From the IMG/VR virus record IMGVR_UViG_2537561930_000012: a DNA stretch of 33,214 bases; one strand, given 5' to 3'. Below are positions 14,986-33,214 of this stretch, piece after piece (the stretch's first letter is position 1; each line of letters begins with the position of its first letter). Under the pieces are notes generated by a model that was not told the origin of the DNA, did not search any database, and worked only from the letters and a program-made list of their open reading frames with translations. Source of the DNA: a virus (lineage: Duplodnaviria; Heunggongvirae; Uroviricota; Caudoviricetes). The position numbers and the translations under genes were made by a program.

Positions 14986-15375
14986 ATGATGTTTCTGAAA
15001 CAGGGCACGTTTAATTATGAAAAACAGTCCGTGGTGCTCAGTGAGCTGTCCGGGCTGCAGAGAATTGAATATCTGGCGTTTGTTCAGCAGCGAACGGCAA
15101 AGTTTGATGCCGGGGAGGGAGAACTGCCGGAGGCTGAACGACAGATTGCTTTTCTGCGGATGGGGATGGATATCAATGCCTGGCTGGTTTCCCGCTCACT
15201 GTGGAATGCGGATCAGTCTAAGGATGTAGAGACGCTTTGCGCATCCGTTATTACAACATGGTCGTATGATGCCCTGGGTGCGGGGGCGGAGATGGTTCTG
15301 TCGCTGAGCGGTATGGGGGCCATTGATAATGCCGGGGATGATGAGCATGAGGCGCTGACGCCGGAAAAGTCCTGA
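14986..15375 (+). CDS. G: Tail assembly chaperone gpG
   Basis: Start MMFLK at 14986, after the V terminator (track ORF begins earlier at 14947); lambda G-like LSELSGLQRIEYLA. Confidence 0.8.
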   Translation: MMFLKQGTFNYEKQSVVLSELSGLQRIEYLAFVQQRTAKFDAGEGELPEAERQIAFLRMGMDINAWLVSRSLWNADQSKDVETLCASVITTWSYDALGAGAEMVLSLSGMGAIDNAGDDEHEALTPEKS

Positions 15376-15713
15376 CGCGGGAAATGCAGTTTGTCATGCG
15401 GCTTGCCCGGGAGTTCCGGCGGGCAGACTGGCGGCGGATGCTGTCGGAAATGTCGGCCACTGAGCTTGGTGAGTGGGGCGATTATTTCCGGATGCAGAGC
15501 TTCAGTGATGTGTGGATGGATGCGCAGTTTGCCTCGCTGAAGGCATTGATCGTGAGAATGGTGTCCGGCAGCAGTGATGCTGCGGTGGCTGATTTCAGCC
15601 TTTTACCGGAAGAGAACGGGATACCGGAGCGAACGGACGAAGAACTGATGCATCTTGGAGAAGGTATTTCCGGAGGTGTGCGTTATGGACCAGATAGCCA
15701 ACCTGGTCATTGA
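14986..15713 (+). CDS. T: Tail assembly chaperone gpGT, predicted product of programmed -1 ribosomal frameshift near the 3' end of G
   Basis: T-like ORF in the -1 frame is open from 15351 and overlaps the end of G; slippery-like GGAAAAG at 15363-15369. Confidence 0.55.
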
Positions 15714-18700
15714 TTTGGGGATTGATGCGGCAGAGTTTAAAAATGAAATTCCCCGTATCAAAAACCTTCTGAATGGTGCAGCCAGCGATGCAGAACGGTC
15801 TTCTGCCCGTATGCAGCGTTTTATGGAGCGTCAGACTCAGGCCGCCCGGCAGACAACGCAGGCGGCTTCTTCGGCTGCAACAGCCGCCTCCGTCCATGCG
15901 CAGACGGTGGAGAAGAACGCACAGGCTCATGAACGCATGGCCCGCGAGGTGGAGAAAACCCGCCAGCGCATGGAGGCGCTGAGCCAGAAAATGCGCGATG
16001 AACAGGCGCAGGCCATGGCTCTGGCGGAGGCTCAGGATAAAGCGGCTGCTGCGTTTTATCGTCAGATTGACAGTGTGAAACAGGCCAGTGCGGGGCTGCA
16101 GGAATTACAGCGTATTCAGCAGCAGATCCGACAGGCCAGAAACAGTGGCGGGATTGGTCAGCAGGATTATCTGGCGCTGATTTCTGAGGTTACGGCGAAA
16201 ACCCGTGTTCTTACACAGGCTGAGGAAGAGGCTACCCGACAGAAAGTGGCGTTTATCCGTCAGCTTAAAGAGCAGGCAACCCGCCAGAATCTTTCATCTT
16301 CTGAGTTGCTTCGTGCTAAGGCAGCCCAGCTGGGGGTAAGCAGTGCTGCAGAAGTGTATATCCGCAAAATGGAGCAGGCAGGAAAAGCCACGCATTCGCT
16401 GGGTCTGAAAAGTGCAGCAGCCCGCCAGGAGATAGGCGTTCTGATAGGTGAACTGGCCCGCGGCAATTTAGGGGCGCTGAGGGGATCCGGGATAACGCTG
16501 GCTAACCGTGCCGGATGGATAGACACACTGATGTCACCGAAAGGCATGATGCTTGGCGGGGTTATTGGCGGTATTGCCGCGGCCGTCTATGGTCTGGGTA
16601 AAGCCTGGTATGACGGTCAGAAGGAGGGGGAAGAATTTAACCGCCAGTTGTCGCTGACGGGGCATTATGCCGGAGTTACTGCCGGGCAGCTGTGGACGCT
16701 CAGTCGTGCTATTTCCGGGAATGGTATCACGCAACATGCTGCAGCCGGTGCGCTGGCTCAGGTGGTGGGGAGTGGTGCATTTCGTGGAAACGATATCGGT
16801 ATGGTGGCGAGAGCTGCCGCACAGATGGAGCGATCGGTTGGCCAGTCGGTCAGCGATACCATAAATCAGTTTAAGCGGCTGAAGGATGATCCTGTAAATG
16901 CCGCGAAGGCTCTGGACAATGAGCTGCATTTTCTTACTGCCACTCAGCTTGAGCAGATACGCGTCCTTGGGGAGCAGGGGCGGTCCAGTGATGCTGCACG
17001 GATAGCCATGTCTGCACTGGCAGAGGAAACCGGTCGGCGTACTGCGGATATTGATAATAACCTCAATGCGCTTGGCAGTACGCTGAAGTATCTGTCTGAT
17101 TTGTGGAGTCGTTTCTGGGATGCGGCCATGAATATTGGTCGTGAAGACTCGCTGGATGAACAGATTGCCGCTTTACAGGAGAAAGTGTCGCGGGCGAAAA
17201 GACTCCCCTGGACGGCATCATCTTCTCAGGTTGAATACGATCAGCAGCGTCTTAACGATCTTCAGGAGAAAAAACGCCAGAAGGATTTGCAGGATGCAAA
17301 AGAGCAGGCAGAGCGGAATTATCAGGAGCAACAGAAACGCCGTAATGCTGAAAATGCTGCACTGAACCGGATGAATGAAACGGAAGCAGCACGACATCAG
17401 CGTGAAATTGCGCGTATTAATGCCATGCAGTACGCCGATCAGGCTGTCAGGGATGCGGCGATACAACGTGAAAATGAACGTTACGAGAAAGCCCTGGCAT
17501 CCGGTAAGAAAAAAACACGCGAAACCCGTAATGATGAGGCCACCCGGTTATTGCTGCAGTACAGCCAGCAACAGGCACAGGTGGAAGGACAGATTGCTGC
17601 TGCAAGACAGTCAGCAGGCATTGCCACTGAAAAGATGACAGAAGCGCATAAACAGCTTCTGGCTCTGCAGCAGCGCATCAGCGATCTGGACGGGAAAAAA
17701 CTGACGGCAGATGAAAAGAGTGTGCTGGCCCGTAAAGATGAACTGATTCAGGCACTGACGCTGCTGGATGTAAAACAGCAGGAGCTTCAGAAACAGACGG
17801 CACTCAACGATCTGAAGAAAAAAACAATTCAGCTGACCAGTCAACTGGCTGAAGAAGAGCGCGCTCAGCGTCAGCAACATGACCTGGATATCGCCACGGT
17901 GGGTATGGGTGATCAGCAGCGGCAGCGATATCAGGTACAACTGAGCCTTCGCCAGAAATACCAGCAACAGCTGGAGCAGTTGAGGCGGGATAGTGAGCAG
18001 AAAGGGACATATAACACGGATGACTACAGAAAGGCCGAGCAGGCGCTGACGGAGAGCCTGAACAGGCAACTGAATGAGAATCGCCGTTACTGGCAACAGC
18101 TTGAAATTGCTCAGGGTAACTGGAAAAACGGTGCCATGCGGGCGTTTCAGAATTTCACGGCAGATGCGGATAATGCGGCAGGCACTGCGGAGCAGATGCT
18201 TACAGCGGCATTTAACAGTGCAGGTAATGCACTGGCTACATTCTGTACCACCGGAAAACTGAACTTCAAATCTTTTACCGCCTCGCTCCTTTCTGATCTG
18301 GCAAAAATCATGGCTCAGATGTCCATGATGCAGGCAGTTAAGGGGATTGGTTCGGCGTTTGGCTGGGGGAGTGCAGCAACTGCCAGTGTGACGCCCAATG
18401 CTGATGGTGGTGTTTATCAGTCTGCTGATTTGAGTCGCTACAGTGGCACGGTGGTTAACCGTCCGACGTTTTTTGCTTTTGCAAAAGGTGCAGGTGTGAT
18501 GGGGGAAGCTGGGCCTGAAGCCATTCTGCCTCTGCGTCGTGGTGCTGACGGTAAGCTGGGGGTTGTGGCGGATATTGGTGGTTCAGGTATGGCGATGTTT
18601 GCCCCGCAGTACAACATCGAGATCAATAACGATGGCACGAACGGGCAGATAGGTCCGGCTGCCCTGAAGGTGGTTTATGACCTCGGGAAAAAAGCAGCAG

Positions 18701-18759
18701 CGGACTTTATGCAACAGCAGGCCCGTGATGGTGGTCGGTTAAGTGGAGCATATCGGTAA
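15685..18759 (+). CDS. H: Tail tape measure protein gpH
   Basis: About 1024 aa from ATG 15685 (SD GGAGGTG); long coiled-coil Q/A/R-rich region; position between G/T and M. Confidence 0.9.
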   Translation: MDQIANLVIDLGIDAAEFKNEIPRIKNLLNGAASDAERSSARMQRFMERQTQAARQTTQAASSAATAASVHAQTVEKNAQAHERMAREVEKTRQRMEALSQKMRDEQAQAMALAEAQDKAAAAFYRQIDSVKQASAGLQELQRIQQQIRQARNSGGIGQQDYLALISEVTAKTRVLTQAEEEATRQKVAFIRQLKEQATRQNLSSSELLRAKAAQLGVSSAAEVYIRKMEQAGKATHSLGLKSAAARQEIGVLIGELARGNLGALRGSGITLANRAGWIDTLMSPKGMMLGGVIGGIAAAVYGLGKAWYDGQKEGEEFNRQLSLTGHYAGVTAGQLWTLSRAISGNGITQHAAAGALAQVVGSGAFRGNDIGMVARAAAQMERSVGQSVSDTINQFKRLKDDPVNAAKALDNELHFLTATQLEQIRVLGEQGRSSDAARIAMSALAEETGRRTADIDNNLNALGSTLKYLSDLWSRFWDAAMNIGREDSLDEQIAALQEKVSRAKRLPWTASSSQVEYDQQRLNDLQEKKRQKDLQDAKEQAERNYQEQQKRRNAENAALNRMNETEAARHQREIARINAMQYADQAVRDAAIQRENERYEKALASGKKKTRETRNDEATRLLLQYSQQQAQVEGQIAAARQSAGIATEKMTEAHKQLLALQQRISDLDGKKLTADEKSVLARKDELIQALTLLDVKQQELQKQTALNDLKKKTIQLTSQLAEEERAQRQQHDLDIATVGMGDQQRQRYQVQLSLRQKYQQQLEQLRRDSEQKGTYNTDDYRKAEQALTESLNRQLNENRRYWQQLEIAQGNWKNGAMRAFQNFTADADNAAGTAEQMLTAAFNSAGNALATFCTTGKLNFKSFTASLLSDLAKIMAQMSMMQAVKGIGSAFGWGSAATASVTPNADGGVYQSADLSRYSGTVVNRPTFFAFAKGAGVMGEAGPEAILPLRRGADGKLGVVADIGGSGMAMFAPQYNIEINNDGTNGQIGPAALKVVYDLGKKAAADFMQQQARDGGRLSGAYR

Positions 18760-19088
18760 TGGAGACGTTTCACTGGAAAGTGCGCCCGGATATGAATGTG
18801 GTATCAGAGCCGAAAGTGGTGACAGTGAAGCTGGGCGATGGTTATGAACAGCGTCGTGCGGCGGGACTGAATAACCAGTTGTCGACTTACAGCGTGACGA
18901 TACGTGTTCGTAAATGTGAACACCCATCTTTAAAAGCCTTTCTGGAACGGCACGGTGGCGTCCGCGCATTTCAGTGGACGCCACCTTATGACTGGAAACC
19001 GATTAGGGTGGTTTGTCGTAAATGGTCGGCAAGCGTGGGGGCGCTGTGGGTAACCATAACGGCAGATTTTGAACAGGTCGTGGCATAG
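18759..19088 (+). CDS. M: Minor tail protein gpM
   Basis: 109 aa, lambda M-like; start overlaps H stop (TAATG). Confidence 0.9.
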   Translation: METFHWKVRPDMNVVSEPKVVTVKLGDGYEQRRAAGLNNQLSTYSVTIRVRKCEHPSLKAFLERHGGVRAFQWTPPYDWKPIRVVCRKWSASVGALWVTITADFEQVVA

Positions 19089-19097
19089 GAGGCTCTG

Positions 19098-19796
19098 ATG
19101 CAGGATATTCCACAGGAAACACATCATGAGACGACACGCCTCACTCAGTCAGCCCAGGTGGTGCTCTGGGAAATCGATCTGACAGTGGTCGGTGGAGAAC
19201 GTTATTTTTTCTGTAATGAGCAGAACGAAAAAGGTGAGCCGGTCACCTGGCAGGGGCGACAGTATCAGGCGTATCCCATTCAGGGGACGGGATTTGAACT
19301 GAACGGCAAGGGCAGTGCTGCCCGTCCGACACTGACGGTTTCTAACCTGCACGGCATGGTCACCGGGATGGCGGAAGACCTGCAGAGTCTGGTCGGAGGA
19401 ACGGTGGTCCGGCGTAAGGTTTACGCCCGTTTTCTGGATGCGGTGAACTTCGTCAACGGAAACAGTGACGCCGATCCGGAGCAGGAGGTGATCAGCCGCT
19501 GGCGCATCGAGCAGTGCAGTGAACTGAGTGCGGTGAGTGCCTCTTTTGTACTGTCCACGCCGACGGAAACGGACGGTGCCGTTTTTCCGGGACGTATCAT
19601 GCTGGCCAACACCTGCACCTGGACCTATCGCGGTGATGAGTGCGGTTATCACGGTCTGGCGGTCGCGGATGAATATGACCAGCCAACGTCCGATATCACG
19701 AAGGATAAATGTAGCAAATGCCTGAGCGGTTGTAAGTTCCGCAATAACGTCGGCAACTTTGGCGGCTTCCTTTCCATTAACAAACTTTCGCAGTAA
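19098..19796 (+). CDS. L: Minor tail protein gpL
   Basis: 232 aa, lambda L-like, with C-terminal Cys cluster (CSKCLSGC). Confidence 0.9.
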   Translation: MQDIPQETHHETTRLTQSAQVVLWEIDLTVVGGERYFFCNEQNEKGEPVTWQGRQYQAYPIQGTGFELNGKGSAARPTLTVSNLHGMVTGMAEDLQSLVGGTVVRRKVYARFLDAVNFVNGNSDADPEQEVISRWRIEQCSELSAVSASFVLSTPTETDGAVFPGRIMLANTCTWTYRGDECGYHGLAVADEYDQPTSDITKDKCSKCLSGCKFRNNVGNFGGFLSINKLSQ

Positions 19797-19801
19797 ATCC
19801 C

Positions 19802-20545
19802 ATGACACAGACAGAATCAGCGATTCTGGCGCACGCCCGGCGATGTGCGCCAGCGGAATCGTGCGGCTTCGTGGTGAGAACGCCGGAGGGGGAAAGATAT
19901 TTTCCCTGCGTGAATATCTCCGGTGAGCCGGAGGCGTATTTCCGGATGTCGCCGGAGGACTGGCTGCGGGCAGAGATGCAGGGTGAGATTGTGGCGCTGG
20001 TCCACAGCCACCCCGGTGGTCTGCCCTGGCTGAGTGAGGCTGACAGGCGGCTGCAGGTGCAGAGCGATTTGCCTTGGTGGCTGGTCTGCCGGGGTGAGAT
20101 TCATAAATTCCGCAGTGTGCCGCATCTCACCGGGCGGCGCTTTGAGCACGGGGTGACGGACTGTTACACGCTGTTCCGGGATGCTTATCATCTGGCGGGG
20201 ATTGAGATGCCGGATTTTCATCGCGGGGATGACTGGTGGCGTCACGGTCAGAATCTCTATCTGGATAATCTGGAGGCCACAGGGCTGTATCAGGTGCCGT
20301 TGTCAGCGGCGCAGCCGGGCGATGTGCTGCTGTGCTGTTTTGGTTCATCGGTGCCGAATCATGCCGCCATTTACTGTGGTGACGGCGAGCTGCTGCACCA
20401 TATTCCTGAACAACTGAGCAAACGAGAGAGGTATACCGACAAATGGCAGCGACGCACACACTCCCTCTGGCGTCACCGGGCATGGCACGCATCTGCCTTT
20501 ACGGGGATTTGCAACGATTTGGCCGCCGCATCGACCTTCGTGTGA
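19802..20545 (+). CDS. K: Tail assembly protein gpK (MPN/JAMM plus NlpC/P60 domains)
   Basis: 247-aa ORF with HSHPGG (JAMM-like) and a Cys/His NlpC/P60-like C-terminal region (DCYTLF ... NHAAIY); overlaps start of I. Confidence 0.85.
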   Translation: MTQTESAILAHARRCAPAESCGFVVRTPEGERYFPCVNISGEPEAYFRMSPEDWLRAEMQGEIVALVHSHPGGLPWLSEADRRLQVQSDLPWWLVCRGEIHKFRSVPHLTGRRFEHGVTDCYTLFRDAYHLAGIEMPDFHRGDDWWRHGQNLYLDNLEATGLYQVPLSAAQPGDVLLCCFGSSVPNHAAIYCGDGELLHHIPEQLSKRERYTDKWQRRTHSLWRHRAWHASAFTGICNDLAAASTFV

Positions 20546-21091
20546 AAACGGGGGCCGAAGCCATCCGGGCGCTGGCCACACAGCTCCCGGCGTTTCGTCA
20601 GAAACTGAATGACGGCTGGTATCAGGTGCGCATTGCCGGGCGTGATGCAGGTGAAACCGAATTATCTGCCCGTCTTAATGAGCCGCTGGCAAATGGTGCC
20701 GTGATCCATATCGTGCCGCGTCTGGCGGGAGCTAAAAGTGGCGGTGTGTTTCAGGTGGTGCTGGGGGCGGCGTTGATTGCGGTGGCATGGTGGAACCCTG
20801 TGGGCTGGCTGGGTGCCGCGGCTGTATCGGGCATGTATGCGGCAGGGGCCAGTATGATCCTGGGCGGTGTGGCGCAGATGCTGGCACCGAAAGCCAGAAC
20901 GTCCCCGTACACAGACAACGGATAACGGCAAACAGAACACCTATTTCTCCTCACTGGATAACATGGTTGCCCAGGGCAATGTTCTGCCGGTTCTGTACGG
21001 TGAAATGCGCGTGGGGTCGCGGGTGGTCTCTCAGGAGATCAGCACGGCAGACGAAGGGGATGGTGGTCAGGTTGTGGTGATTGGTCGCTGA
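20443..21091 (+). pseudogene. I: Tail assembly protein gpI, interrupted by an apparent +1 frameshift near 20902 (N-terminal 160-aa ORF 20443-20925; C-terminal conserved segment continues in another frame to 21091)
   Basis: N-terminal frame ends ...LAPKARTSPYTDNG*; the conserved C-terminus ...TTDNGKQNTYFSSLDNMVAQGNVLPVLYGEMRVGSRVVSQEISTADEGDGGQVVVIGR is in the +1 frame; junction at a CCCC run. Confidence 0.6.
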
Positions 21092-21150
21092 TGAAAAACG
21101 TTTATGTGAAACCGCCTCCGGGCGGTTTTGTCGTTTATGGAGCGTGAGGA

Positions 21151-24548
<3,398 letters not shown>

Positions 24549-24566
24549 ATTTTATAACCCAGAACG

Positions 24567-24592
24567 GGCGTCAGAAATGACGCCTTTTTTAT
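24567..24592 (+). terminator. Intrinsic terminator after J
   Basis: 7-bp stem ggcgtca-gaaa-tgacgcc followed by TTTTTTATT. Confidence 0.5.
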
Positions 24593-24614
24593 TGCAGAAA
24601 AGCGAGAGGTAATT

Positions 24615-25214
24615 ATGCGTAAACTTTATGCCGCCATTTTGTCCGCAGCCATTTGTCTGGCCGTATCCGGTGCGCCTGCATGGGCGTCTGAACATCAGTC
24701 CACGCTGAGCGCGGGGTATCTTCATGCCCGGACGAACGTTCCCGGCAGTGATGATCTGAACGGGATTAACGTGAAATACCGTTATGAGTTTACGGACACA
24801 CTGGGGATGGTGACGTCGTTCAGCTATGCAGGAGACAAGAATCGCCAGCTGACCCGTTACAGCGATACCCGCTGGCATGAAGATTCCGTGCGTAACCGCT
24901 GGTTCAGCGTGATGGCGGGGCCGTCTGTGCGCGTGAATGAATGGTTCAGCGCGTATGCGATGGCGGGTGTGGCTTACAGCCGTGTGTCGACTTTCTCCGG
25001 GGATTATCTGCAGGTGACCGACAATACGGGGAAAACGCACGACGTGCTGACCGGAAGTGATGACGGTCGCCACAGCAACACGTCTCTGGCGTGGGGGGCT
25101 GGCGTGCAGTTTAACCCGACCGAATCCGTGGCCATTGATATTGCTTATGAAGGCTCCGGCAGTGGTGACTGGCGCACTGACGGTTTCATCGTGGGTGTCG
25201 GTTATAAATTCTGA
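24615..25214 (+). CDS. lom: Outer membrane beta-barrel protein Lom (Ail/Lom family)
   Basis: 199-aa ORF with signal peptide (AVSGAPAWA), alternating beta-strand pattern and C-terminal ...GVGYKF; flanked by terminators. Confidence 0.9.
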   Translation: MRKLYAAILSAAICLAVSGAPAWASEHQSTLSAGYLHARTNVPGSDDLNGINVKYRYEFTDTLGMVTSFSYAGDKNRQLTRYSDTRWHEDSVRNRWFSVMAGPSVRVNEWFSAYAMAGVAYSRVSTFSGDYLQVTDNTGKTHDVLTGSDDGRHSNTSLAWGAGVQFNPTESVAIDIAYEGSGSGDWRTDGFIVGVGYKF

Positions 25215-25240
25215 TTAGCCAGGTAACACAGTGTTATGAC

Positions 25241-25268
25241 AGCCCGCCGGTTCAGGCGGGCTTTTTTG
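25241..25268 (+). terminator. Intrinsic terminator after lom
   Basis: 8-bp stem agcccgcc / ggcgggct with 6-nt loop followed by T6. Confidence 0.5.
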
Positions 25269-25278
25269 TGGGGTGAAT

Positions 25279-28200
25279 ATGGCAGTAAAGATTTCAGGTG
25301 TACTGAAAGACGGCACAGGAAAACCGGTACAGAACTGCACAATCCAGCTGAAAGCAAAACGTAACAGCACCACGGTGGTGGTGAACACGCTGGCCTCAGA
25401 AAATCCGGATGAAGCCGGGCGTTACAGCATGGACGTTGAGTACGGTCAGTACAGCGTTATTCTGTTGGTGGAAGGCTTCCCGCCGTCACATGCCGGGACC
25501 ATTACCGTGTATGAAGATTCCCGACCCGGTACGCTGAATGATTTTCTCGGTGCCATGACTGAGGATGATGCCCGTCCGGAGGCACTGCGCCGTTTTGAGC
25601 TGATGGTGGAAGAGGTGGCGCGTAACGCGTCCGTGGTGGCACAGAACACGGCAGCCGCGAAGAAGTCAGCCAGTGATGCCAGCACATCAGCCCGTGAGGC
25701 GGCAACCCATGCGACTGATGCTGCAGGCTCAGCACGCGCAGCCAGCACGTCAGCCGGACAGGCCGCGTCGTCGGCTCAGTCAGCGACTTCCAGCGCAGGA
25801 ACGGCATCAACAAAGGCCACTGAAGCATCAAAAAGTGCTGCCGCTGCAGAGTCCTCAAAAAGCGCGGCAGCTACCAGTGCCAGTGCCGCGAAAACGTCAG
25901 AAACGAATGCGGCAGCGTCACAAAAATCTGCAGCCACTTCTGCATCCGCCGCGACCACAAAGGCGTCAGAAGCTGCCACCTCAGCCCGGGATGCGGCGGC
26001 CTCAAAAGAGGCAGCGAAATCATCAGAAACGAACGCATCATCAAGCGCCAGTAGTGCCGCTTCCTCGGCAACGGCGGCAGGAAATTCCGCGAAGGCGGCA
26101 AAGACGTCCGAGACGAACGCCAGGTCTTCTGAAACGGCAGCGGGACAGAGTGCCTCAGCTGCGGCAGGCTCAAAAACAGCGGCTGCGTCGTCTGCCAGTG
26201 CCGCGTCAACAAGTGCCGGGCAGGCCTCAGCCAGTGCCACCGCCGCCGGAAAATCGGCAGAAAGTGCTGCATCGTCCGCTTCAACAGCCACAACGAAGGC
26301 TGGCGAAGCCGCTGTACAGGCCAGTGCAGCAGCGAGGGCTGCTTCCGCAGCGAAGACATCCGAAACGAACGCGAAAGCGTCGGAAACCAGCGCAGAATCC
26401 TCAAAAACGGCTGCCGCATCGTCCGCCAGTTCGGCGGCGTCATCGGCATCATCTGCGTCTGCTTCAAAAGATGAGGCGACCAGACAGGCGTCAGCAGCGA
26501 GGGGCAGCGCCACGACGGCATCCACGAAGGCGACAGAGGCTGCTGGCAGTGCGGCAGCGGCAGCACAGAGCAAAAGTACGGCAGAATCCGCAGCAACGCG
26601 CGCTGAGACAGCGGCAAAACGTGCAGAGGATATTGCATCCGCCGTGGCGCTTGAGGATGCAAGTACGACGAAAAAGGGGATAGTACAGCTCAGCAGTGCG
26701 ACCAACAGTACGTCTGAAACGCTGGCGGCAACGCCAAAGGCAGTAAAATCAGCCTATGACAATGCAGAGAAACGTCTGCAGAAAGACCAGAACGGCGCTG
26801 ATATACCCGATAAGGGACGCTTCCTGAACAACATTAACGCGGTCAGTAAAACAGACTTTGCTGATAAGCGTGGTATGCGTTATGTGCGGGTTAACGCTCC
26901 TGCAGGTGCAACATCTGGAAAATATTACCCTGTTGTTGTTATGCGTTCTGCTGGCTCAGTAAGCGAACTGGCATCAAGGGTCATTATCACCACGGCAACG
27001 CGAACCGCAGGCGATCCGATGAATAACTGCGAGTTTAACGGATTTGTTATGCCTGGTGGCTGGACTGACAGGGGGCGTTATGCTTATGGCATGTTCTGGC
27101 AATATCAAAACAATGAACGAGCCATTCACTCAATAATGATGAGTAATAAGGGCGATGATTTGCGCTCTGTGTTCTATGTTGATGGCGCTGCTTTCCCTGT
27201 TTTTGCGTTTATCGAAGATGGCCTGTCAATATCCGCACCTGGTGCTGATCTCGTTGTTAATGATACGACCTATAAGTTTGGGGCAACAAATCCGGCGACT
27301 GAATGTATCGCGGCGGACGTTATCCTTGATTTTAAGAGTGGGCGTGGTTTTTATGAGTCTCATTCGTTAATCGTTAACGATAACTTGTCGTGCAAAAAAC
27401 TTTTTGCCACAGACGAAATTGTAGCGCGTGGTGGTAATCAGATTCGAATGATAGGTGGGGAGTATGGTGCATTATGGCGTAATGATGGCGCTAAAACTTA
27501 CCTGCTGCTTACCAATCAAGGTGATGTTTATGGTGGCTGGAATACATTAAGACCGTTTGCTATTGATAACGCAACCGGCGAACTGATTATTGGAACCAAA
27601 CTGTCCGCAAGTCTGAACGGTAATGCATTAACAGCAACAAAGCTGCAAACGCCAAGACTGGTTTCTGGTGTTGAGTTTGATGGTTCCAAAGATATTACTT
27701 TAACCGCTGCGCATGTGGCTGCTTTTGCCAGAAGGGCAACTGATACATATGCCGATGCGGATGGTGGCGTTCCCTGGAATGCCGAATCAGGCGCTTACAA
27801 TGTCACCCGCTCTGGCGACAGCTATATTCTGGTTAACTTCTATACCGGAGTCGGAAGTTGCCGGACCCTGCAGATGAAGGCGCATTACAGAAATGGAGGT
27901 CTGTTCTACCGTTCCTCAAGAGATGGCTATGGTTTTGAGGAAGACTGGGCAGAAGTTTATACCTCGAAAAATCTTCCACCAGAAAGCTACCCAGTCGGTG
28001 CACCAATCCCGTGGCCATCAGATACCGTTCCGTCTGGCTATGCCCTGATGCAGGGGCAGACTTTTGACAAATCTGCATACCCGAAACTTGCAGCGGCTTA
28101 TCCGTCAGGCGTTATTCCTGATATGCGTGGCTGGACGATTAAGGGCAAGCCCGCCAGTGGTCGTGCCGTATTGTCTCAGGAACAGGACGGCATTAAATCG

Positions 28201-28677
28201 CACACCCACAGCGCCAGCGCATCCAGTACGGATTTGGGGACGAAAACCACATCGTCGTTTGATTACGGCACTAAATCCACGAATAACACCGGGGCTCATA
28301 CGCATAGTCTGAGCGGCTCTACAAGCTCGGCTGGAGCACACTCGCACGTTGATGGGCGCAGGTTTAATACAAGCACTTTTAAAGACACCTATCAGTATGG
28401 TTCTACAGCTGTCGGAAGTAACTCATACCAGGTACAAGGGGCGGTTGGTCTGGGCGTTGGTACGATGGCGAATACGAACTCTGCTGGCGCGCACACCCAC
28501 TCACTGTCCGGCACTGCTGCAAGCGCAGGCGCACACGCACATACTGTCGGTATTGGTGCACACACGCACTCCGTTGCGATTGGTTCACATGGACACACCA
28601 TCACCGTTAACGCTGCTGGTAACGCGGAAAACACCGTCAAAAACATTGCATTTAACTATATTGTGAGGCTTGCATAA
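25279..28677 (+). CDS. stf: Side tail fibre protein Stf (mosaic; expanded Ala/Ser/Thr-rich repeat region and His-rich C-terminal fibre repeats)
   Basis: About 1132 aa from ATG 25279; lambda Stf-like N-terminus ([26 protein letters not shown]...); repeated SETNA motifs; C-terminal GAHTHS-type repeats; ends ...[11 protein letters not shown]. Confidence 0.85.
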
Positions 28678-29258
28678 TGGCATTCAGAATGAGTGAACAA
28701 GCACGGACCATAAAAATTTATAATCTGCTGGCCGGAACTAATGAATTTATTGGTGAAGGTGATGCATATATTCCGCCTCATACAGGTCTGCCAGCAAACA
28801 GTACCGACATTGCACCGCCAGATATTCCAGCTGGCTTCGTGGCTGTTTTCAACAGTGATGAGTTATCGTGGCATCTCGTTGAAGATCATCGGGGTAAAAC
28901 GGTTTATGACGTGGCTTCCGGCGACGCGTTATTTATTTCTGAACTCGGCTCATTACCGGAAAATGTCACCTGGTTATCCCCGGAAGGGGAGTTTCAGAAG
29001 TGGAACGGCACAGCCTGGGTGAAAGATGCAGAAGCAGAAAAACTATTCCGGATCCGGGAGGCGGAAGAAACAAAAAACAGCCTGATGCAGGCAGCGAATG
29101 AGCATATTGCGCCACTTCAGGATGCTGTAGATCTGGAAATCGCAATGGAGGAAGAAAACTCGTTGCTGGAAGCCTGGAAAAAGTATCGGGTGTTGCTGAA
29201 CCGTGTTAATACAACAACTGCACCGGATATTGAATGGCCAGTAGCACCTATAGGGTAA
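28677..29258 (+). CDS. tfa: Tail fibre assembly protein Tfa
   Basis: 193-aa ORF overlapping stf stop (TAATG); conserved C-terminus ...[31 protein letters not shown]. Confidence 0.85.
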
Positions 29259-29845
29259 ATTCGTAATGATTACCTAAATACGTTATTCTTTTGTTCAAAA
29301 AGTGATTTTGCTATAGGTAGAGAGTATGTTCTTGGATTAAGAATAAAAAATCGCCATGAAAGAGCTTCATGGCGAGTACATAAACGTACAAAATATGATG
29401 AAAGTAGAGCGGCGTAAGCCACTATATTAAGATATGACAATAGCGAAGAAAAGTGAATAACATTTTATGGGCGTTTAATTGTTAATTATAAAAACTAGAG
29501 TGCCCGATATTGTTTATCTTGCTTTAAAATAATGTACTCAAACCAAATTTTTGAGCTAAAAGCTCAAATAATATAAATGCAATGATAATGTTTAATAAGA
29601 CAATTAGCTTGCTTTGTATTTTCATTTCGGAATACTGTTAAGTAACTTTGATGACCCTAACAATAGATCGGAATTTTCTTAGAGTCAATGGTCACTGTAT
29701 TTGCTTGCAAAGCAAATGTTTTGGTGGTTATAAGTTTTCCTAATATAGTCACCTATGCAACTTGTTCCGTGTGGAGATTAAAGGTTAAAATTTAATGCGA
29801 AGATGGAATTATATTATATTTTTTATAATTAATTTAACCTTAACA

Positions 29846-29944
29846 TCGTTGCTGGCGGCATGGAAGAAATATCGGGTCTTGCTGATGTCGTGTTGGCACT
29901 TCCTTAGTGCCGGATATCAAATGGCCAGCTGTACCTGTGGGGTG
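29846..29944 (+). repeat. Decayed second copy of the tfa 3' end (frameshifted remnant)
   Basis: About 75% nucleotide identity to 29160-29258; encodes ...[12 protein letters not shown] then, after a frame change, PDIKWPAVPVG*. Confidence 0.55.
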
Positions 29945-30604
29945 AAAACTTTATATGGATGCTATTTTTATAATAGCTGGTAAAAACTGGCCGAACTGAA
30001 ATTCACTGTTGATAAAAAAGATGTGTTTGAGTGTATGTCATTGTTTTCTTAATGGAATCCACTAGAATGCAGCGAATTTAAGAAGGTGGGTTTTTATTGG
30101 AATATAAACTACAATAATGCTCAACTCGTTCGTAGAATTGTTTTTTCTTATTTCTTGGAATGCTAACCATTATATGCATTATGGGGGCGATGCTTCCTGA
30201 TAATTTACATGATGCATACATTGAAGCAATAAATTCAATATCATTGTCATCAAAGTTAAAGCTTTCTCCGTCCATTTCAATTCCTTATGTGTTTGGCACA
30301 ACTGATGCTGTATCCCATGAGAATTTATGCAAGTTGTTATGTTTGATTTGATATTGCAATGATAATTGTAGCTAATTGTTTTCAATTGAGTGAAAGTTTA
30401 TTTCGAGTGATTAAGTCGAAAAAAAAGATTTCTCACGGTTAGTAAGCATATTAGGTCAGTATTCAGATATGAATGGTATTAATGACTAAATTTTCAATCA
30501 TATATGGATTTTTATGCTGATGAAGATGTTTTATTTGGCGATTCGTCAAGCATCTTCACTTAAGTAATCGTATATTTTAAGAGTGCAAAAGAGAAAGGGA
30601 CAAC

Positions 30605-30703
30605 GTTGCTCGCACTCTGGATTAAATATAGGGTATTGTTAAACTTCGTTGATACATAATTGTACCGGATATTGAGTGGTCTGAAGTCCCAGTCATTAAG
30701 TAA
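30605..30703 (+). repeat. Decayed third copy of the tfa 3' end (more diverged remnant)
   Basis: Alignable to 29170-29258 (...ctggattaaatatagggtattgttaaac...taccggatattgagtgg...taa); encodes LWIKYRVLLNFVDT* and, in another frame, PDIEWSEVPVIK*. Confidence 0.45.
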
Positions 30704-31051
30704 TTGTTTCGTGATATGCTGCAGAAACGTTGTATGCAATAACGTTCTGCGGTTGGCTGGTGAAATTTCGATAGTGCGGGTATTGAATGATTTCCAGCCG
30801 TTACCGATTTTATATAACTGCAGTGGAATTATTCAACACACAGGCAAAACTGAATAAGCTGAGAAAAAAGCGTGCTTTCCCAATCTGGGGCAAATCACTT
30901 CTGAATGACACCTGAAAACAGGTGGTGGACTCAAGAAGGCTTGGAATATTCTTCTTTAATGTTATGTAATTCATTGATTTTTCGTGTACGATTTTAAGAC
31001 ATTTATTCCAAGAAAAATTTTTAACTCTTTGATTTTTCGACTCTGTATCAT

Positions 31052-31113
31052 CGGTCTCGAAAACCGGAGTAGGGGCAACTCTACCGGGGGTTCAAATCCC
31101 CCTCTCTCCGCCA
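31052..31113 (+). other. 3' fragment of tRNA-Ser (serU-type, anticodon arm through CCA end), likely prophage attachment-site (attR) scar
   Basis: 62 nt CGGTCTCGAAAACCGGAGTAGGGGCAACTCTACCGGGGGTTCAAATCCCCCTCTCTCCGCCA; upstream sequence does not continue into the tRNA 5' half. Confidence 0.6.
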
Positions 31114-31697
31114 CTTTATCAATGACTTATCTCCCGACTTCCCGCCTTGCTTTTCCTAAACAGAACAATCGTAGAATATTCTTGAAGGGTTAGATCGTCA
31201 CTGTTTTCTGTTCGATACTGTGACATTCAGCACTTGATTCGCTATGGATCTGACAGGAAGGTTTTGAGCGAAAATTTGCAGTTATTCAGTCGTTTTCTTA
31301 TCGGTCACCATTATTCTTTTAGACATTGATCCTACAAAGCTGCCGCAAAGTTGGTGGTGGGAACTGAAGTTGCGTAGAGAAGGGGTCAATACCCGGAGGC
31401 AAACATGGGCTGGCAAAAGTGTAGCGGTATTAGGCGCAGCTATTTAGCCTAGTTATGTTTTATGAAAACTTGATATCATATAAGTGTCTTACTTATTGGC
31501 TGTAAATAAGTTTTTCCTAAGGAATTGTTTCTTGAGTATCATTTGTAACTGTAACGGAATTTATAATCCTTTGCTTTATTGTTACGGTATTTTTTATCAC
31601 ACCCTATTTTTTATGTGGTTTTTTATACTGAAGTTTGGCAAAGTGAACTTTATATGCATATACTTCATCCTGGTTTCAGTTAAGTTGGGTGGATGAT

Positions 31698-32441
31698 ATG
31701 GCAACTACATGTTCAGTTATATTGATTTTGGAGTCCTTTGATGTTTATTTCGGAAAAGAGAGTGTGTTTCTAGAGAAAGGTTCATCTGTACTTGTCGACT
31801 CTAGCTCTAGAGATTTTTTCCTGACATATCCTGAAAGAGTGATAGTGGCGGATTTTGGCGCTGAGTTTATTAGTCGCTATTTGAAAGCTAATAACTTAAG
31901 GGATATTTCTGATTGTAGGGAATATCCATCTTATTTAAAAATAAACTTTGCTGACTTCAGTTTAATTAAAGGATTAATTAGTTGGGCTAATCACTGTGCT
32001 GAATACATAGAAATTTTTGATGAGTCTATTGCTTTTACATGTCTCTCTGCATTTTCTTCTGAAAAACAATTTGGAGTATTTCTGTTTGAATGTTTGAAAA
32101 GCACAGAGGCTAAAGTTAAAACGATTATTCATACGGATTTATCTGCACCATGGCGTCTTAAGGATATATCATCAAGATTATATCTCAGCGAAAGTTTACT
32201 AAAGAGGAAATTGAAAGAAGAGGGGGTATCATTCAGTAAGATCATACTTGATGAGAGGATGCAAATGGCTGAATATTTACTCAGCACTCGTTGTTATCCT
32301 ATTAGTAAAGTAGCTAAGGTCTGTGGTTATGCCAGTGTCTCATACTTTACTTATGTATTTAGACGTTATTTTGGTGTTTCTCCAAGTCAATACTCTCAGA
32401 GGAGTTCAGAAAGTAAAATTCTTACTCACCAGGGAATCTGA
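31698..32441 (+). CDS. AraC/XylS-family transcriptional regulator (AppY/YdeO/GadX-like)
   Basis: About 247 aa (ATG 31698; track ORF from GTG 31689); C-terminal dual-HTH AraC signature (WRLKDISSRLYLSESLLKRKLKEEGVSFSKIILDERMQMA...CGYASVSYFTYVFRRYFGVSPSQY); AT-rich gene. Confidence 0.75.
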   Translation: MATTCSVILILESFDVYFGKESVFLEKGSSVLVDSSSRDFFLTYPERVIVADFGAEFISRYLKANNLRDISDCREYPSYLKINFADFSLIKGLISWANHCAEYIEIFDESIAFTCLSAFSSEKQFGVFLFECLKSTEAKVKTIIHTDLSAPWRLKDISSRLYLSESLLKRKLKEEGVSFSKIILDERMQMAEYLLSTRCYPISKVAKVCGYASVSYFTYVFRRYFGVSPSQYSQRSSESKILTHQGI

Positions 32442-32482
32442 TCATTGTTCTTGCCCCCTTATTTCCAGACAGGGGGTGTATC

Positions 32483-32848
32483 TTAAGTTAACGTTACCCG
32501 CTGACGTCGATATTCTCGCGGAGAGCGATAACCCAACGCACTGTGCGGATGGTTTTCATTGTAATGATCGATCGCCACTGCAAGATTATGCAATGCCGTT
32601 CTTACATTCGGTTTCGGCATGAACGCGATGTAGTCTTCCTTCATCGTTTTCACGAACCTTTCTGCCATTCCATTACTCTGAGGACTGCTGATTGCCGTTG
32701 TGCAGGGCTCCAGATTCAACTCTCTGGCGAACTGCCATGTTTCATGCGCTCTATACGCTGAACCGTTATCTGTCAGCCACTGGATGGACTGTTCCGGTAC
32801 TTTATCGCCAAAGCGTTTTTCTATCGCTCCTAACATGACATCCTGCAC
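32483..32848 (-). mobile_element. Truncated IS3-family (IS2-like) transposase OrfB, C-terminal half of the DDE/rve catalytic domain
   Basis: 121-aa minus-strand ORF with DNGSAYRA...[11 protein letters not shown]...[14 protein letters not shown]; the N-terminal half and orfA of this copy are missing. Confidence 0.7.
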
Positions 32849-32992
32849 TGTCGCTTTATCGTAACCTCCCGTGCTTGCGGCCCAGTCTATGGCTTCACGA
32901 TCGCAACAGTCCAGGGCGAACGTAACACGCAGTTTTGAATCGCCACGGGTTTAACAGACACCTCAGAGTCATTTAAGATGGCTTAAAGAGAG

Positions 32993-33214
32993 GTGCCCAT
33001 GAGCGGTAAGCGTTATCCCGAAGAGTTTAAAACTGAAGCAGTCAAACAGGTTGTTGATCGCGGTTATTCTGTTGCCAGCGTTGCAACACGTCTCGATATC
33101 ACCACCCACAGCCTTTATGCCTGGATAAAGAAGTACGGTCCGGATTACTCCACTTTTTCATCAAGCCAATCCGCCCACCACTGCATCATTTCTCTGCGCT
33201 TATCGAGATACTGA
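32993..33214 (+). CDS. IS3-family transposase OrfA (HTH), opposite orientation to the adjacent OrfB fragment; C-terminal region looks aberrant
   Basis: 73-aa ORF MPMSGKRYPEEFKTEAVKQVVDRGYSVASVATRLDITTHSLYAWIKKYGPD... then non-conserved tail before stop at 33212-33214. Confidence 0.65.
   Translation: MPMSGKRYPEEFKTEAVKQVVDRGYSVASVATRLDITTHSLYAWIKKYGPDYSTFSSSQSAHHCIISLRLSRY

Follow-up and report, generated by a model that had tools for sequence, protein, structure and literature searches.

The locus and its features

The DNA analysed here (hereafter the window) is a stretch of 33,214 nucleotides from the late region of a lambdoid prophage, in which terminase, portal, head and tail genes are followed by J, lom, stf and tfa. 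Beyond stf and tfa, its last structural genes, the window passes into the AT-rich accessory ('b') region, where GC content falls to 0.32-0.40 beyond position 29000. From stf to the end of the window the following features were recognised:

25279-28677 (+): stf, side tail fibre gene (open reading frame, homologues and Pfam)
28677-29258 (+): tfa, tail fibre assembly gene
30747-31051 (+): P arm of a serU-type phage attachment site (the phage DNA left of the core), collinear with the attR of the CUVET21-1780 prophage
31052-31113 (+): 3' 62 nt of tRNA-Ser(CGA) serU, an attachment-site core in attR configuration, 62/62 against K-12 serU
31114-31391 (+): 278 bp of E. coli chromosomal DNA from directly downstream of serU (the B' arm and beyond)
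31392-31445 (+): final ~54 bp, with the inverted repeat GCGCAGCTATTT at the terminus, of an IS630-family element, from a match to the right end of an annotated element
31698-32441 (+): gene for an AraC-family regulator of 247 aa, YdeO/GadX-like and patE-like
32483-32848 (-): IS3-family transposase remnant (rve_3 integrase core domain, Pfam)
32993-33214 (+): IS3-family orfA fragment (HTH_Tnp_1, Pfam), reaching the end of the window

At the centre of this array lies a truncated tRNA gene. In E. coli K-12, serU is a 90-nt gene between mtfA and yodB for a tRNA-Ser with anticodon CGA, and its last 62 nt are reproduced without a mismatch (62/62) at 31052-31113 (+; CGGTCTCGAAAACCGGAGTAGGGGCAACTCTACCGGGGGTTCAAATCCCCCTCTCTCCGCCA). 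The fragment begins at the second base of the anticodon stem, takes in the CGA anticodon, the variable arm and the T arm, and finishes with CCA. The original prediction, made from the letters of the window, had recognised a serU-type tRNA-Ser running from the anticodon arm to CCA, and its coordinates, length and assignment prove exact. The fragment occurs once in the window and matched nothing in 100 shuffles (0/100). At position 31051, immediately to its left, the window has a T where the tRNA has a C. The 5' half had been described as absent upstream, and its absence extends further than that: the 28 nt at the 5' end of serU (GGAGAGATGCCGGAGCGGCTGAACGGAC) have no match anywhere in the window with up to three mismatches permitted. 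Neither ARAGORN nor the Rfam tRNA model RF00005 calls a tRNA at 31052-31113, the only tRNAs found by either in the window being those of a phage cluster at 2396-2705. A functional tRNA gene has a complete cloverleaf; this fragment lacks the 5' 28 nt of one and is called by no detector. Today it is neither a tRNA nor the boundary of the resident prophage, and we assume that it most likely has no role.

A hybrid attachment site produced at serU

The site was compared with its counterparts in all four configurations (attP, attB, attL and attR), the unsplit attP being taken from two chromosomes:

Unsplit attP: P arm (...actctgtatcat), core with a G..C variable-arm pair, P' arm (aaattcaatcactt...), then the integrase
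CUVET21-1780 attL: tRNA 5' half, G..C, P' arm
CUVET21-1780 attR: P arm, host-type A..T, host B' arm (ctttatcaatgact...)
K-12 attB: A..T variable-arm pair, B' arm

With its P arm, A..T and B' arm, the window agrees exactly with attR and has a hybrid P-B' site with recombinant core markers, which places strand exchange in the anticodon stem-loop, no further than 19 nt into the core. Across 30747-31391 it is collinear with, and 98.1% identical to, the true serU attR (right junction) of the CUVET21-1780 lambdoid prophage, whose right junction runs on into zinT and msrQ, and at whose opposite end an intact serU is followed directly by a tyrosine integrase. The part of the P arm that was tested (30800-31051) was also found in unsplit attP, followed by core, P' arm and integrase, in nine genomes, and in GenBank record KU052038, for prophage SerU-LTIIb, the serU attR is annotated with this 62-nt pseudo-tRNA-Ser, after which comes yodB. 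On the strength of these alignments, the fragment in the window was generated by a real integration at serU, and the view that it is the footprint of site-specific integration into that gene is upheld by its collinearity with a genuine serU attR.

Matches to the 3' end of tRNA-Ser are also found further afield, with the Klebsiella phages KpF5, ST101-KPC2phi6.3 and P7641 and the Citrobacter phage Chris1 each carrying a match of about 80 nt at 93-94% identity. These matches suggest that the tRNA-Ser 3' end may be a common attachment core of enterobacterial temperate phages.

Captured host DNA and its joint with an IS630 remnant

Homology to the chromosomal attachment locus does not end with the core, but reaches past it into flanking host DNA. 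The 340 bp at 31052-31391 have a match at the native serU locus of nearly every one of 5426 complete E. coli genomes, with an identity of 97.4% to K-12 and 99.1% to the closest native locus, and the captured 278 bp to the right of the core are, by their sequence, E. coli serU DNA. Comparison with an unoccupied serU locus had been proposed as a check on the fragment; made against K-12, it gives the match across 31052-31391, but the homology ends 278 bp beyond the core. The break falls at 31391/31392 (...GGGGTCAATA|CCCGGAGG...), and neither yodB nor zinT is present to the right of 31391, either in the flank alignment or in the source contig. The identical joint between serU flank and IS630 is found in the copy carried by E. 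coli O157:H7.

The resident prophage ends at the lambda attachment site

Among complete E. coli genomes, 25 kb of the window had no identical counterpart, the best match reaching 97.6% identity at a coverage of 90%. The contig from which the window derives, AQFH01000008.1 (assembly GCA_000356745.2), was found through an exact match to the Stf protein and is identical to the window over 17,936 of 17,936 overlapping bases (15279-33214). Past the end of the window it continues through a lambda-type P arm to the lambda core CTTTTTTATACTAA at window-equivalent 33440-33453, placing the core of a lambda attR 226 bp past the window end; to the right of this core follow the lambda B' arm CTTGAGCGAAACGGGAAGG, ybhB, bioA and bioBFCD. 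Because the contig reaches a lambda attR and the ybhB-bio genes, the prophage has its real right end at the classical lambda attB, 2.33 kb beyond the fragment. The original prediction had placed that end at about 31113, which is where the tRNA fragment stops and not where the prophage does: the host homology beside the fragment extends for only 278 bp and comes from the serU locus, while the prophage sits at bio, so the fragment is not the right end.

The opposite end of the prophage points the same way. The source assembly breaks within the prophage and its left end is on another contig, but the full-length relative OkiPb01701, in which the last 4.7 kb match the window at 98.8% and the attR is the same, carries a lambda-type int and xis beside ybhC at its left end, without a tRNA-Ser. 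An intact tRNA-Ser and integrase had been anticipated at the other end, and the lack of a matching tRNA-Ser there had been named as the outcome that would refute the prediction; this relative shows that outcome. Judging from relatives, the left end of the source prophage would likewise have no serU-type integrase.

Everything downstream of the fragment had been taken for either host DNA or a second, tandemly integrated element. Host DNA does indeed make up the next 278 bp; beyond them come IS DNA, the AraC-family gene and the lambda attR. From 31114 to the lambda attR there is no integrase and no second pair of attachment sites, and the region is therefore not a second element in tandem. One further match to the lambda core within this region, at 31617-31631 (+; GGTTTTTTATACTGA), 67 bp upstream of the AraC-family gene, was considered and rejected. 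It agrees at 13 of 15 positions, a match expected 0.03 times per window; outside the core it resembles neither attP nor attR and is therefore probably a chance occurrence in AT-rich DNA.

Distribution of the block and its cargo

The fragment sits inside prophage and phage genomes, away from its native locus. The phage records ev099 and PhiR70_1 are 99.5-99.6% identical to the window across 30857-33214 (a 2.36-kb block), and that of mEp332 matches 30857-31700 at 98.7%. The block is bounded in ev099 by tfa on one side and by the lambda-type attP of that phage on the other; the attP core follows 224 bp after the position equivalent to the window end and is itself followed by int and xis. Among 5426 complete E. 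coli genomes, the 31391/31392 joint is spanned in 524 (about 10%), and the contexts seen were lambda attB and the thrW/paoD side (strain 602687 and O157:H7 SS17). A chimeric query that combined the native serU 5' side with the joint of the window found the joint at native serU in none of the 5426 genomes, and hence no living precursor; such a precursor would be a serU prophage with IS630 and patE on its downstream side. In all seven of the fossil copies compared, the 62-nt core is free of substitutions.

The copy in O157:H7 shares the right joint and has a different left arm, the divergence beginning exactly at the core. This alternative left arm, which is preceded by a GIY-YIG gene, is a second type of serU P arm, also present at a true serU attR in seven genomes; the prophage that carries it in O157:H7 is defective and lies at thrW. 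Further variation was observed to the left of the core. A segment of about 1 kb (29837-30856) is present in the window and in OkiPb01701, is replaced by about 86 bp in ev099 and strain 602687, and has an equivalent of about 100 bp in PhiR70_1 and ACN002. Since the sequence from 30747 rightward extends the serU-type P arm, the window retains the longer, and probably the older, left side of the scar.

To the right of the joint, the cargo is the gene for an AraC-family regulator of the patE-like kind, which is implicated in the acid resistance of enterohaemorrhagic E. coli (EHEC) and in control of the LEE. The encoded protein is identical at 244 of 247 residues to that of a gene in O157:H7 (SS17), where it stands at the right end of the cryptic prophage beside thrW. 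The gene patE (z0321) is reported to lie in OI-8, the cryptic prophage beside thrW of O157:H7 (PMC10877973). We accordingly call the gene in the window patE-like, its equation with patE resting on the location reported in that review and on gene position. Between this gene and the window end lie two IS3-family scraps; the counterparts of 32483-32848 in relatives are annotated as a partial 'integrase core domain' or as 'InsD of IS2'.

Origin of the scar

We consider it very probable that the fragment is the fossil attR of a serU-integrating lambdoid phage, lying within the 'b' region of a different lambdoid prophage that is itself inserted at lambda attB (ybhC-ybhB/bio). Read from left to right, the region consists of the P arm of the serU phage (at least 305 bp), the core, the 278-bp flank, the IS630 end, the AraC-family gene, the IS3 scraps and the lambda P arm and core. 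Old attachment scars of this sort, with a little host DNA captured alongside, are nothing unusual, but the present example is a clean one.

Such a scar would have arisen when an ancestral serU prophage excised aberrantly, through an illegitimate event to the right of its attR, so that the hybrid P-B' site and adjoining host DNA would have been retained. Lambda bio transducing phages arise by aberrant excision of the same type, and a lambda-bio-like excision is the capture mechanism that we infer here. Homologous recombination among lambdoid phages would then have moved the block beside a lambda-type attP-int and into prophages elsewhere. The novel joint at 31391/31392 has an IS630 remnant for its partner, and carrier phages possess a complete lambda-type int-xis module. 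As the joint falls within an IS630-family element, the right side must have been shaped by at least one event, whether deletion or illegitimate recombination; as its partner is an IS remnant, and not recognisable phage early-region DNA, one or more additional steps of deletion or recombination must be assumed. The complete int-xis module of the carriers implies that any original loss of phage genes at the opposite end has since been repaired by recombination. The two left arms found on the one right joint could reflect either a later exchange within the shared 340 bp or the capture of the same ancestral-chromosome DNA by two serU prophages.

There is a lesser chance, which we judge unlikely, that the capture was larger than this, with everything from 31114 up to the lambda P arm representing chromosomal DNA that once lay downstream of serU and was taken up in one aberrant excision, and with an attR that may still serve serU-type integrases. 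Were the whole block captured in this way, a virulence-relevant regulator would have joined the lambdoid gene pool by natural specialized transduction; were the attR still a secondary site for serU-type integrases, the two different left arms would be explained.

Alternative explanations

The reading with which this analysis began, in which the fragment is an active attR, the prophage ends at about 31113 and host chromosome or a tandem element lies beyond, draws on the exact serU attR structure of the site and on the 278 bp of genuine host serU flank that come next. Against it, host homology stops after those 278 bp and yodB and zinT never appear, the source contig contradicts it by continuing to a lambda-type attR and ybhB-bio, OkiPb01701, which shares this right end, carries lambda int beside ybhC at the other, and the downstream block, which has no integrase or attachment-site pair of its own, is found inside phage records between tfa and a lambda attP. 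We regard that reading as very improbable. At least as improbable is the retention of the fragment as a functional RNA or as regulatory DNA for the AraC-family gene, whether it were to act as a terminator or an insulator or to signal processing in the manner of a tRNA. The fragment does accompany that gene in every one of the 524 genomes, and its predicted fold keeps the T-arm and variable-arm hairpins, but the fold has no stability beyond that of shuffled sequence (z = -0.5), Rfam returns nothing above threshold for the fragment RNA, and there is no terminator-like site in 30700-31800. Moreover, the only good promoter-like site for the gene (31635-31664) lies to the right of the IS630 remnant, with the fragment 585 bp upstream of the gene and the IS scar in between, and the perfect conservation of the 62 nt fits the recency implied by the 97-99% identity of the neutral flank.

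A more substantial case can be made that the scar is still a recombination site, serving as a secondary target for serU-type integrases through integration of prophage into prophage or through Int-mediated exchange of left arms. Core and B' arm are both still complete, with the 62 nt unsubstituted in the seven fossil copies compared, and two genuine serU-type left arms (those of the window and of O157:H7) stand on an identical right joint, so that arms must have been exchanged at least once, in the core or next to it. In addition, chromosome-derived attB in lambdoid prophages are used by other phages (PMC8112680). Against this, ordinary homologous recombination across the shared 340 bp explains the arm exchange equally well, as do two independent captures from one ancestral chromosome, and among the genomes examined no serU-type prophage was bracketed by two copies of the fragment at the fossil site. 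We therefore think continued use of the scar improbable, and retain the fossil attR as the preferred explanation. Chromosomal P-O-P' junctions, found in nine genomes, were considered as candidates for integration into the fossil. The two that were inspected were rejected: both, one at potC/potB and the other near uspF, proved to be unsplit attP separating tandem prophages, and neither had the fragment again at its far end.

In NZ_CM142674.1 (~1.081-1.169 Mb), two tandem lambdoid prophages between potC and potB are parted by an unsplit serU-type attP and integrase, and in NZ_CP027355.1 (~1.213-1.285 Mb) two tandem lambdoid prophages next to uspF are parted by an unsplit serU-type attP and integrase. 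Cargo genes were observed directly before the attP of these arrays: one strain has cdtABC there, and the other has three genes with DUF1076 domains.

Comparison with known systems

In its succession of P arm, core, B' arm, contiguous host DNA and illegitimate novel joint, and in its occurrence within phage records, the scar resembles a transducing phage of the lambda bio type. It differs from one in that the attachment site is serU and not the gal-bio attB, that recognisable host DNA amounts to only 278 bp, and that the partner at the joint is an IS630 remnant. The carriers, furthermore, have a complete and different lambda-type int-attP module, which marks the scar as historical, rather than as a recent event of the laboratory kind.

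Lambdoid prophages are also known to contain attB sites of chromosomal origin ('attB-in-PP'; Nakamura et al. 2021); the published ones stem from yecE, ykgJ/ecpE and ompW, with identities of 81-87%, and have been shown to receive incoming phages (PMC8112680). In both cases chromosomal attachment-site DNA with its flanks lies in the right-end accessory region and is common to prophages at different loci. The scar described here, however, derives from serU, of which the main text of PMC8112680 makes no mention, has an identity of 97-99%, and is an attR (P-O-B') instead of a bare attB, with no use as a target seen. The gene serU is itself a recognised site of prophage integration (PMC8767318). With true serU attR sites (SerU-LTIIb in KU052038, and CUVET21-1780) the scar shares the same 62-nt pseudo-tRNA-Ser, the same or a related P arm and the same flank, but where those prophages continue into yodB and zinT and have an intact serU and an integrase at the other end, the scar has no flank beyond 278 bp and stands at bio. 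The patE locus of O157:H7 (OI-8, at thrW) has the same fragment, 278-bp flank and IS630 joint and an AraC-family protein identical at 244 of 247 positions, and differs in its left arm, with a GIY-YIG gene before it, and in the prophage there being defective and located at thrW.

Implications for annotation and for the spread of cargo

A perfect tRNA 3' fragment beside tail-fibre genes mimics a prophage boundary, and taking it for one would misplace the end of this prophage by 2.3 kb and assign it to the wrong site (serU). Boundary callers that use tRNA-fragment repeats would err in this way in roughly one in ten E. coli genomes. The scar is also a well-preserved natural trace of the capture of host DNA at an attachment site, for which all four attachment-site configurations can be compared. 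Its physical linkage to a patE-like gene offers a plausible route by which this cargo gene may have become phage-borne and spread to prophages at several chromosomal sites.

Additional observations on the prophage

Elsewhere in the window, comparison with intact homologues shows a frameshift in each of the tail genes I (20443-21090) and J (21151-24548). The one in J is due to a 1-bp deletion near 22070, outside any homopolymer run, and gene calls on the source contig split J likewise, into products of 328 aa and 821 aa. Probably, either the prophage is defective or the frameshifts are indels of the draft assembly. Inside the 3' end of the tfa open reading frame, at 29020-29218 (+), there is a full-length match to Rfam family IS009 (209 bits, against a gathering score of 117), which probably means that the family was defined on the tfa region of prophages. 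The first gene of the tRNA cluster at 2396-2705 is called tRNA-Met(CAT) by ARAGORN, and the cluster in related prophages is annotated as tRNA-Ile, tRNA-Lys, tRNA-Thr and tRNA-Gly; as the related clusters start with tRNA-Ile, this first gene is probably a tRNA-Ile2 read through lysidine.
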